Source: Escherichia coli (GTDB taxonomy: Bacteria > Pseudomonadota > Gammaproteobacteria > Enterobacterales > Enterobacteriaceae). From it: a stretch of DNA of 64,000 nucleotides. This document shows positions 61,843 through 63,255 of this stretch, in pieces; within the stretch, counting starts at the first letter, position 1, and the number at the start of each line of letters is the position of its first letter. The DNA is taken from the NCBI RefSeq assembly GCF_016903815.1, contig NZ_CP069973.1; one strand, given 5' to 3'. Under the pieces are notes generated by a model. That model saw nothing but the letters and a program-made list of their open reading frames with translations, was not told where the DNA came from and did no database searches. The position numbers were made by a program, and so were the translations under genes.

Positions 61843-63255
61843 TTACCAACCGGAGGATGAGGGAACGTATATTTCTGTTTCTTCGCGGACCAATGCCGGG
61901 CAATGCATACACATCATCAGCGCATCAGCCAGGTTAGGAGATGGGATACCGAGCTTCTGCTTCATTTCGACCTTAGTCATAAGCTCCAGCTTCCCGTTGT
62001 TATTGAATTTGCGCTGAATCTGCGTAAGTTCTGCAAACAGCTTCTCCAGCATCTTCTCGCCTATCGCTTCTTTGTCGAAACTCAGCATGTCGTCGGGGTC
62101 TGCATACTCACCATGGACAACCGCCCGATATGTCAGATACAGCCTGTCAGCCAGCGCGTAATAGAATTGCGCTCGCTTATTGCGGAACACATCGCCAATA
62201 GTGCGAACGTTGTCGCCCTGTACGACTTCATCAGCCCATGCTCCGGCCTGATACGGAGCATCTTCATCGAATGGCGATTCGCTGCCCTTGAACATCGTGG
62301 CGGTGATTTTCTTGCCGGAGAACGCTTCCGTTGTCTGTCTGCGTAGCCCAGCACCAACACCATCACCATCCCACAGGTAGTGGTCAGCGCCGTCTTCAAT
62401 CGCCAGCGAAGTAGCCCAGTCAGCACCCTCGTTGATGTCCATCAGCAGACCTTCGGCAATGCGCTTAACTACAGAACCGTGACGCGATGCATAACCTTTA
62501 GCATCTGGCCCTGTATCTGACGGGTCATGCGCAGAGACAACAGCGCCTTTCGCTTTCCATCCGAGTTTCTTGTGCGCATCGGTTGCGGCTTCAAGCCATT
62601 CACGTTTGATGATTGCCATATCACTTGCGCTTACTGGCTCACCCAGCCAGATGTGACGATACAGTGTCGGGTTTCTGCGTTTACACTCTTCCATCTCCAG
62701 ACGGAGAACTTCAGGAAAGTGCGGGTTGTCGGTGTAGTTCACCGTCAGCAGACAAATATCATCAGGAGGATTTACGACGAATCGCTGATAGGTATCGTCG
62801 AGGATGTTCTTCGGGTTAAAGCTCACCCATATTTCAGAGAACGGCTTACGGATGGTTGGAATCAGGATATCCCATGATTCCTTCGTTACCGCTTCCGCTT
62901 CTTCCACCCAGCAGATATCAATGCCTTCGAGCGATTTAATCTTCGTCGGGTTGTTTTTTATGCCGTAGAACATGAATTCAGCATTCGTTCCGAAATGACG
63001 AATCATTGAACGCTGAATTTCAAACTCAGCCGAATACCCTTCACGCTCGATGGTATCTTCAAGCAACCGGATTACCGAATCGCTGATACTGTTTTGCAGT
63101 TCACGAGCGCAGAGAATACGCACAGGCTGCCGACGCGCCGCTTCAACAAGCAGCCTCGCAATTGCCCATGACTTACCGCTACCTCGACCGCCTTTGGCGA
63201 CTTTGTAGCGATGCGCCTCAATGAACGGTTCAAAGATAGGATTAATCGAGGTCAT
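61843..63255 (-). CDS. Terminase large subunit (Sf6-type)
   Basis: 470-aa ORF with Walker A AKGGRGSGKS at the N-terminus and C-terminal nuclease domain; recalled as closely matching Sf6 TerL. Confidence 0.88.
   Translation of the reverse strand: MTSINPIFEPFIEAHRYKVAKGGRGSGKSWAIARLLVEAARRQPVRILCARELQNSISDSVIRLLEDTIEREGYSAEFEIQRSMIRHFGTNAEFMFYGIKNNPTKIKSLEGIDICWVEEAEAVTKESWDILIPTIRKPFSEIWVSFNPKNILDDTYQRFVVNPPDDICLLTVNYTDNPHFPEVLRLEMEECKRRNPTLYRHIWLGEPVSASDMAIIKREWLEAATDAHKKLGWKAKGAVVSAHDPSDTGPDAKGYASRHGSVVKRIAEGLLMDINEGADWATSLAIEDGADHYLWDGDGVGAGLRRQTTEAFSGKKITATMFKGSESPFDEDAPYQAGAWADEVVQGDNVRTIGDVFRNKRAQFYYALADRLYLTYRAVVHGEYADPDDMLSFDKEAIGEKMLEKLFAELTQIQRKFNNNGKLELMTKVEMKQKLGIPSPNLADALMMCMHCPALVREETEIYVPSSSGW

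Follow-up and report, generated by a model that had tools for sequence, protein, structure and literature searches.

Organization of the terL-Portal Junction

The window, that is, the whole stretch of 64,000 nucleotides of Escherichia coli DNA that was analyzed (contig NZ_CP069973.1), carries on its minus strand a phage large terminase gene (terL) followed directly by a portal gene. The features of this junction are the following.

63255..61843, minus strand: terL (large terminase), 470 aa, TAA stop at 61845..61843 (ORF list)
61912..59714, minus strand: longest portal ORF, 732 aa, GTG start (ORF list)
59714..61840, minus strand: portal gene, 708 aa, ATG at 61840, N-terminus MAETLEKKHERIMLRFD...
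61910..61912, minus strand: GTG at which the longest ORF mechanically begins, not a real start
61841..61842, minus strand: two-nucleotide spacer, AC, after the terL stop and before the portal ATG (read from the sequence)
61802..61804, minus strand: internal ATG (Met13), giving a 696-aa form, the start in some automatic annotations
61846..61912, minus strand: overlap region, TerL residues about 448–470 (MCMHCPALVREETEIYVPSSSGW), the C-terminal tail
61845..61851, minus strand: weak Shine-Dalgarno-like GGUUGGU, built from the Gly-Trp codons that close terL plus the first stop-codon base
61894..61896, minus strand: mosaic breakpoint, at terL codon Ala454 (pairwise alignment, megablast)

Read in the portal frame, the minus strand runs ...GTG(61912) TAT GCA TTG CCC GGC ... 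CGG TTG GTA AAC ATG(61840) GCA GAG ACA TTA GAG AAA AAA. In the terL frame the same region reads ...ATG ATG TGT ATG CAT TGC CCG GCA TTG GTC CGC GAA GAA ACA GAA ATA TAC GTT CCC TCA TCC TCC GGT TGG TAA AC ATG, the portal frame being -1 relative to terL. The initial annotation had described a longest portal ORF reaching 70 nt into terL, and these coordinates (61843..61912) were found to be exact in both the sequence and the ORF list. The 70 nt correspond to the last ~23 codons of terL, which encode the C-terminal tail of TerL, and the distance from GTG 61912 to ATG 61840 is 72 nt, or 24 codons. The ORF caller takes as start the first ATG, GTG or TTG following a stop. The initial annotation had also placed the ATG of MAETLEKK directly after a terL stop at 61840; the ATG does lie at 61840, but the stop occupies 61845..61843 and the dinucleotide AC separates the two.

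Identity of the Portal Protein and Its Relatives

In the window lies an Sf6/HK620-type (P22-like, Lederbergvirus) prophage, with its late operon on the minus strand in the order 63692>63252 (terS-like), 63255>61843 (terL), 61840>59714 (portal), 59700>58816 and 58804>57533. The order terS-terL-portal-scaffold-coat is likewise annotated in Sf6, HK620, and CUS-3. The product of terL matched the Pfam family Terminase_3 (E = 2.3e-41) and is named terminase large subunit in the records of Sf6, HK620, and RefSeq. The portal product scored 596.2 bits against Pfam PF16510, P22_portal (cutoff 26.1, E = 9.3e-179), with residues 14–637 lying on profile positions 2–594. Furthermore, it aligned over residues 1–708 with the Sf6 gene 3 protein of known structure (PDB 7sfs_M, 1577.9 bits) and matched the P22 portal (3lj5_A, E = 4.9e-95). 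Profile, homology to solved structures and gene position thus all placed it in the P22-like portal family.

The closest described system was Sf6 (AF547987; PDB 7SFS, 7SP4, and 7SPU), with a junction of the same stop-AC-ATG form (gene 2 ends at 1832 and gene 3 starts at 1835), DNA 98.4% identical over 801 nt, and a gp3 of 708 aa that is about 99% identical in an end-to-end alignment. The two differ in portal substitutions (e.g., Q23K, A205T, D217N, and D220G), in the N-terminal part of terS and in the surrounding prophage genes, which are mosaic. Genes 2 and 1 of HK620 (AF335538) have a junction of identical geometry and are annotated with the same start; the RefSeq portal WP_000852333.1 of E. 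coli strain 7/2 also has this start, in a junction 100% identical over 301 nt. Neither of these two differed from the window in anything relevant to the portal start.

More distant relatives shared the architecture to different degrees. APSE of Hamiltonella (P18/P19) and phiSG1 of Sodalis (gp02/gp03) encode Sf6-type portals (82–88% identical in the first 200 aa) with a conserved MAET/MAES N-terminus, a TerL tail ending in ...VPSSSSW and -1 or 3 nt between stop and start, but the portal-frame stretch 5' of their ATG is interrupted or unrelated. In P22 (M59749, genes 2 and 1) the portal fold and family are the same, the terL stop runs into the portal ATG as TAATG with a 1-nt overlap, and the portal N-terminus, MADNENRLESILSRFD, aligns to MAETLEKKHERIMLRFD. 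In contrast, the P22 portal is only about 28% identical over the first 200 residues, a good Shine-Dalgarno sequence (GAGGA, -5.8 kcal/mol) lies inside the end of its terL, and its TerL tail is basic and proline-rich, unlike the ...TEIYVPSSSGW of the window.

The portal studied here is essentially Sf6 gp3/HK620 gp1, and both records have long carried its ATG start. The call of the initial annotation was correct but ordinary, being already known from the annotation of phage Sf6.

The Extension Upstream of ATG 61840 Is Not Coding

The 24-codon extension between GTG 61912 and ATG 61840 is the 3' end of terL, stop-free in the portal frame by chance. The alternative, that translation of the portal begins at GTG 61912 and gives a 732-aa protein whose 24 additional N-terminal residues overlap terL, is the one that yields the longest ORF. 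Variation in this region was followed in a set of 83 close junctions, comprising 80 IMG/VR loci together with Sf6, HK620, and vB_EcoP-611R6. The portal frame remained open in 67 of the 83, as such a start would require, but was closed by a TGA in the other 16. This stop results from an A>T change at the equivalent of 61876 that is silent in terL (ACA>ACT, Thr) and turns the portal-frame codon AGA into TGA. Two of the 16 carriers were also changed at 61885, once again silently for terL (CGC>CGT) and with a second stop for the portal frame (CGA>TGA). An intact 708-aa portal, 99.3–99.9% identical to that of the window, was encoded by 14 of the 16 carriers, and terL was intact as well.

Eleven variant alleles were counted in the overlap; six were silent in the terL frame and three in the portal frame, and two created portal-frame stops. 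A dual-coding overlap would keep both frames open and conserved and would suppress silent variation. The opposite was found, with portal-frame stops in the 16 close relatives and in MS2 LVA, phiSG1, and APSE, and with tolerance of terL-silent changes. The region can serve as a textbook example in which silent-site variation of an upstream gene disproves an apparent gene overlap.

In diverged relatives, stops lie just upstream of the homologous ATG. The number of open portal-frame codons before it was one in phiSG1 and in Aeromonas phage 4_4512, two in CUS-3/Sf101, three in MS2 LVA and seven in P22, where no alternative start codon occurs among the seven. Since the portal-frame stretch is interrupted or unrelated in APSE and phiSG1, the extension is not conserved. 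Alignment of portal homologues to the extension was the outcome that the initial annotation had named as counting against its call. When a query including the extension was run by tblastn, residues 1–24 were covered in 10 near-identical records only; the remaining matches (phiSG1, APSE, CUS-3, and the rest) began at residue 23–33, so that no diverged homologue aligned to it. The comparison with the P22 and Sf6 N-termini proposed in the same annotation also agreed with its call, the Sf6 gp3 chain 1–708 falling on ORF residues 25–732 and P22 residue 5 on residue 30.

Additionally, an exact look-up of the 732-aa form in about 15 billion catalogued proteins gave no entry. The length of the open run lies within chance (P about 0.05–0.15): when 14 genes of the window were scanned in their -1 frame, at least 24 stop-free upstream codons were found at 14.6% of positions, and at 5.3% within terL alone.

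The strength of the anti-Shine-Dalgarno duplex was compared for five candidate starts and was best for ATG 61840 (-4.9 kcal/mol), followed by ATG 61804 (-3.3 kcal/mol), while GTG 61912 is without a Shine-Dalgarno sequence (-1.5 kcal/mol). Two TTG codons, at 61903 and 61849, were also considered as portal starts and discarded, with duplexes of -0.3 and -1.1 kcal/mol, respectively; the first of them also lies upstream of the portal-frame stops found in relatives. All of the tests preferred ATG 61840 to GTG 61912, in agreement with the initial annotation, which had judged the true start to lie next to the terL stop. Translation from GTG 61912 is effectively refuted, and we regard it as extremely improbable.

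The open portal frame within terL could also be read as serving a programmed -1 frameshift with a TerL-portal fusion as its product, given that the portal frame is -1 to terL and open for 28 codons before the ATG. Inspection by eye of 61912..61846 in the terL frame revealed no slippery heptamer of the X XXY YYZ type, no stimulatory structure was found, and the portal-frame stops of the 16 relatives would interrupt such a fusion. This explanation is already contradicted and is given virtually no weight.

Choice Between ATG 61840 and the Internal ATG 61804

The conflict present in public annotations concerns the downstream ATG 61804 (Met13, 696 aa) and not the upstream GTG, a point that the initial annotation missed. 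ATG 61840 is the start used in the curated Sf6 and HK620 records and by RefSeq/PGAP, while Met13 is used for ON470589, whose DNA is 100% identical, and for HF4s. Among catalogued contigs, the 708-aa form occurred on 843 and the 696-aa form on 723.

Several observations speak for Met13 as the sole or an additional start. Apart from these annotations, Met13 is conserved in phiSG1, APSE, and MS2 LVA, and the match to the Pfam P22_portal profile opens at residue 14, a position from which the profile cannot separate Met1 from Met13. A further observation concerns HF4s (MT833387). At 780–790 of this record (window equivalent 61817..61822) a run of five A is found in GAGAAAAAACAT (portal codons 6–8), where the others have six. 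The resulting 1-nt deletion in the deposited sequence shifts the frame after codon 7 and puts the equivalent of ATG 61840 out of frame with the portal, although HF4s was obtained as a viable isolate. The portal of HF4s is annotated from Met13 because of this A5 for A6. The deletion would most simply be a sequencing error, as it sits in a homopolymer, where such errors are typical. If it is real, a portal without residues 1–12 would be viable; in a weaker reading, Met13 would be a functional back-up start, used by HF4s-like phages that survive a frameshift at codons 7–8.

The evidence on residues 1–12 themselves points to Met1. [quoted passage not shown] The model starts at residue 1 and hence residues 1–12 belong to the mature portal, although a cryo-EM model alone would miss a disordered N-terminal extension. 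An Edman or mass-spectrometry N-terminus for Sf6 gp3 was not found in the literature searched, which gave the cryo-EM residue range only. In comparisons with MS2 LVA, phiSG1, and APSE, portal codons 2–12 carried four to five silent and two to five replacement differences, and by this pattern they evolve as coding sequence. At the position of Met13, CUS-3 and P22 have Leu, and their N-termini still align to MAE.../MAD...; the duplex at Met13 is the weaker of the two.

We consider initiation at Met13, alone or in addition, to be improbable, and conclude that the portal is very probably translated from ATG 61840, two bases past the terL stop, as a protein of 708 aa. The frequent calling of the 696-aa form from Met13 by automatic pipelines was noted as a systematic mis-annotation. 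The main value of these results lies in annotation quality, with a correct form of 708 aa against a public form of 696 aa and a longest-ORF form of 732 aa, and the N-terminus to be used for expressing, modelling or comparing the portal is MAETLEKK....

Initiation Signals and Possible Coupling to terL

The abutment of the terL stop and the portal start is conserved. The terL stop, the spacer, the ATG and the first 17 portal codons were invariant in all 83 close relatives, and the gap between stop and ATG, 2 nt in the window, was -1 nt in APSE and P22, 1 nt in CUS-3 and 3 nt in phiSG1. With MS2 LVA included, the gap thus stayed between -1 and +3 nt, the close spacing of stop and start expected of a coupled pair. 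The Shine-Dalgarno signal was weak throughout the Sf6/APSE/CUS-3 group (-3.4 to -4.9 kcal/mol). Within the operon of the window, the scaffold and coat genes are preceded by duplexes of -6.9 kcal/mol (13-nt spacer) and -6.2 kcal/mol (11-nt spacer), so that the portal signal is weaker but not absent; at the terS>terL junction, an ATGA overlap is combined with a duplex of -3.5 kcal/mol.

This geometry and the weak signal suggest that coupling to terL is the main route of portal initiation, a reading that we slightly favor. Ribosomes ending terL at the UAA would re-initiate on the adjacent AUG, aided by the weak upstream GGUUGGU, and the coupling would tie a low level of portal synthesis to the synthesis of TerL. 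In this scheme, weak coupled sites would serve for the low-copy proteins of terS, terL and portal, and strong independent ones for the high-copy scaffold and coat proteins. The operon offers a textbook example of how initiation signals differ among late genes, terS/terL/portal being abutted and weak, and scaffold/coat spaced and strong.

Alternatively, ribosomes could bind independently at ATG 61840 through GGUUGGU, with no contribution of terL termination and reinitiation. The element is suitably spaced and, at -4.9 kcal/mol, is the best of the candidates tested; initiation of this kind is practised in related phages with spacers of 12–37 nt, which mostly carry GGAG, GAGG or AAGGA; and there is no occluding structure that would have to be melted. 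Against this stand the maintenance of the abutment across lineages down to 28% portal identity and the weakness of the signal in the whole Sf6/APSE/CUS-3 group. Independent binding is a possible reading to which we give a clearly lesser chance than one in two.

A start-occluding or coupling-related mRNA hairpin at the junction was considered and rejected. The 100-nt fold gave z = +0.77 relative to shuffled sequences, and an alignment of five lineages gave no covariation support (covariation term +0.12). The relation between spacer length and Shine-Dalgarno strength was not significant over 12 lineages (Spearman rho = -0.24, p = 0.46), and Aeromonas phage 4_4512 has a strong Shine-Dalgarno sequence despite a gap of 3 nt. 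Only inside the Sf6/APSE/CUS-3 group is the trend suggestive, and it was not used as evidence.

The TerL Tail and a Mosaic Breakpoint

A sharp mosaic breakpoint was observed at 61896 on the minus strand, inside the 3' end of terL (CUS-3 equivalent about 1905). On its 5' side, terL is about 98% identical to that of CUS-3, Sf101, Huey, and Kapi1. On its 3' side, the last 17 terL codons (Ala454–Trp470) and the portal gene are unrelated to those of CUS-3/Sf101-type phages, and eight megablast matches end at the breakpoint base, 61896. When the junction was used as a probe in 5,426 complete E. coli genomes, 586 matched, 223 of them over the whole Sf6-type junction and 363 over part only. Most of the partial matches, among those listed, ended at query position 105, which is position 61896 of the window.

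The breakpoint shows that the C-terminal tail of TerL is inherited together with the portal gene. MS2 LVA and APSE share the conserved tail motif, ...TEI(Y/V)VPSSS(G/S)W. In P22, TerL without its C-terminal tail (residues 483–499) no longer binds portal in the procapsid form (PMC5290284). By analogy, the tail encoded in the window would be a portal-docking tail, and its travelling with the portal is sensible if it is a docking element. There is about an even chance that the last 17 terL codons constitute a portal-matching cassette, exchanged with the cognate portal and independently of the ATPase/nuclease body. This arrangement is perhaps already covered by published work on mosaicism in P22-like phages.

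Prophage Context and Neighboring ORFs

Two antisense ORFs on the plus strand lie opposite the terL/portal junction, at 61803..61937 (44 aa) and 61903..62346 (147 aa). Chance occurrence within coding sequence is their most likely origin.

At the other side of the prophage, a tRNA-Arg(CCT) was located at 42760..42834, followed by an ORF of 397 aa at 42960..44153 on the plus strand, a putative integrase. The pair likely marks the boundary between prophage and chromosome, and all of the window beyond about 42.8 kb seems to be prophage DNA.

The terS-like ORF at 63252..63692 (minus strand, 146 aa) overlaps the terL start by ATGA. A Pfam search with this ORF gave no match; it is annotated as an "HNH homing endonuclease" in ON470589 and as a small terminase in CUS-3. 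Its C-terminal end (...KDGGAIQIETSPMSTLFGK) presumably resembles that of Sf6 gp1, while the N-terminal part differs. This would suggest a mosaic small terminase in which the DNA-recognition domain has been swapped.
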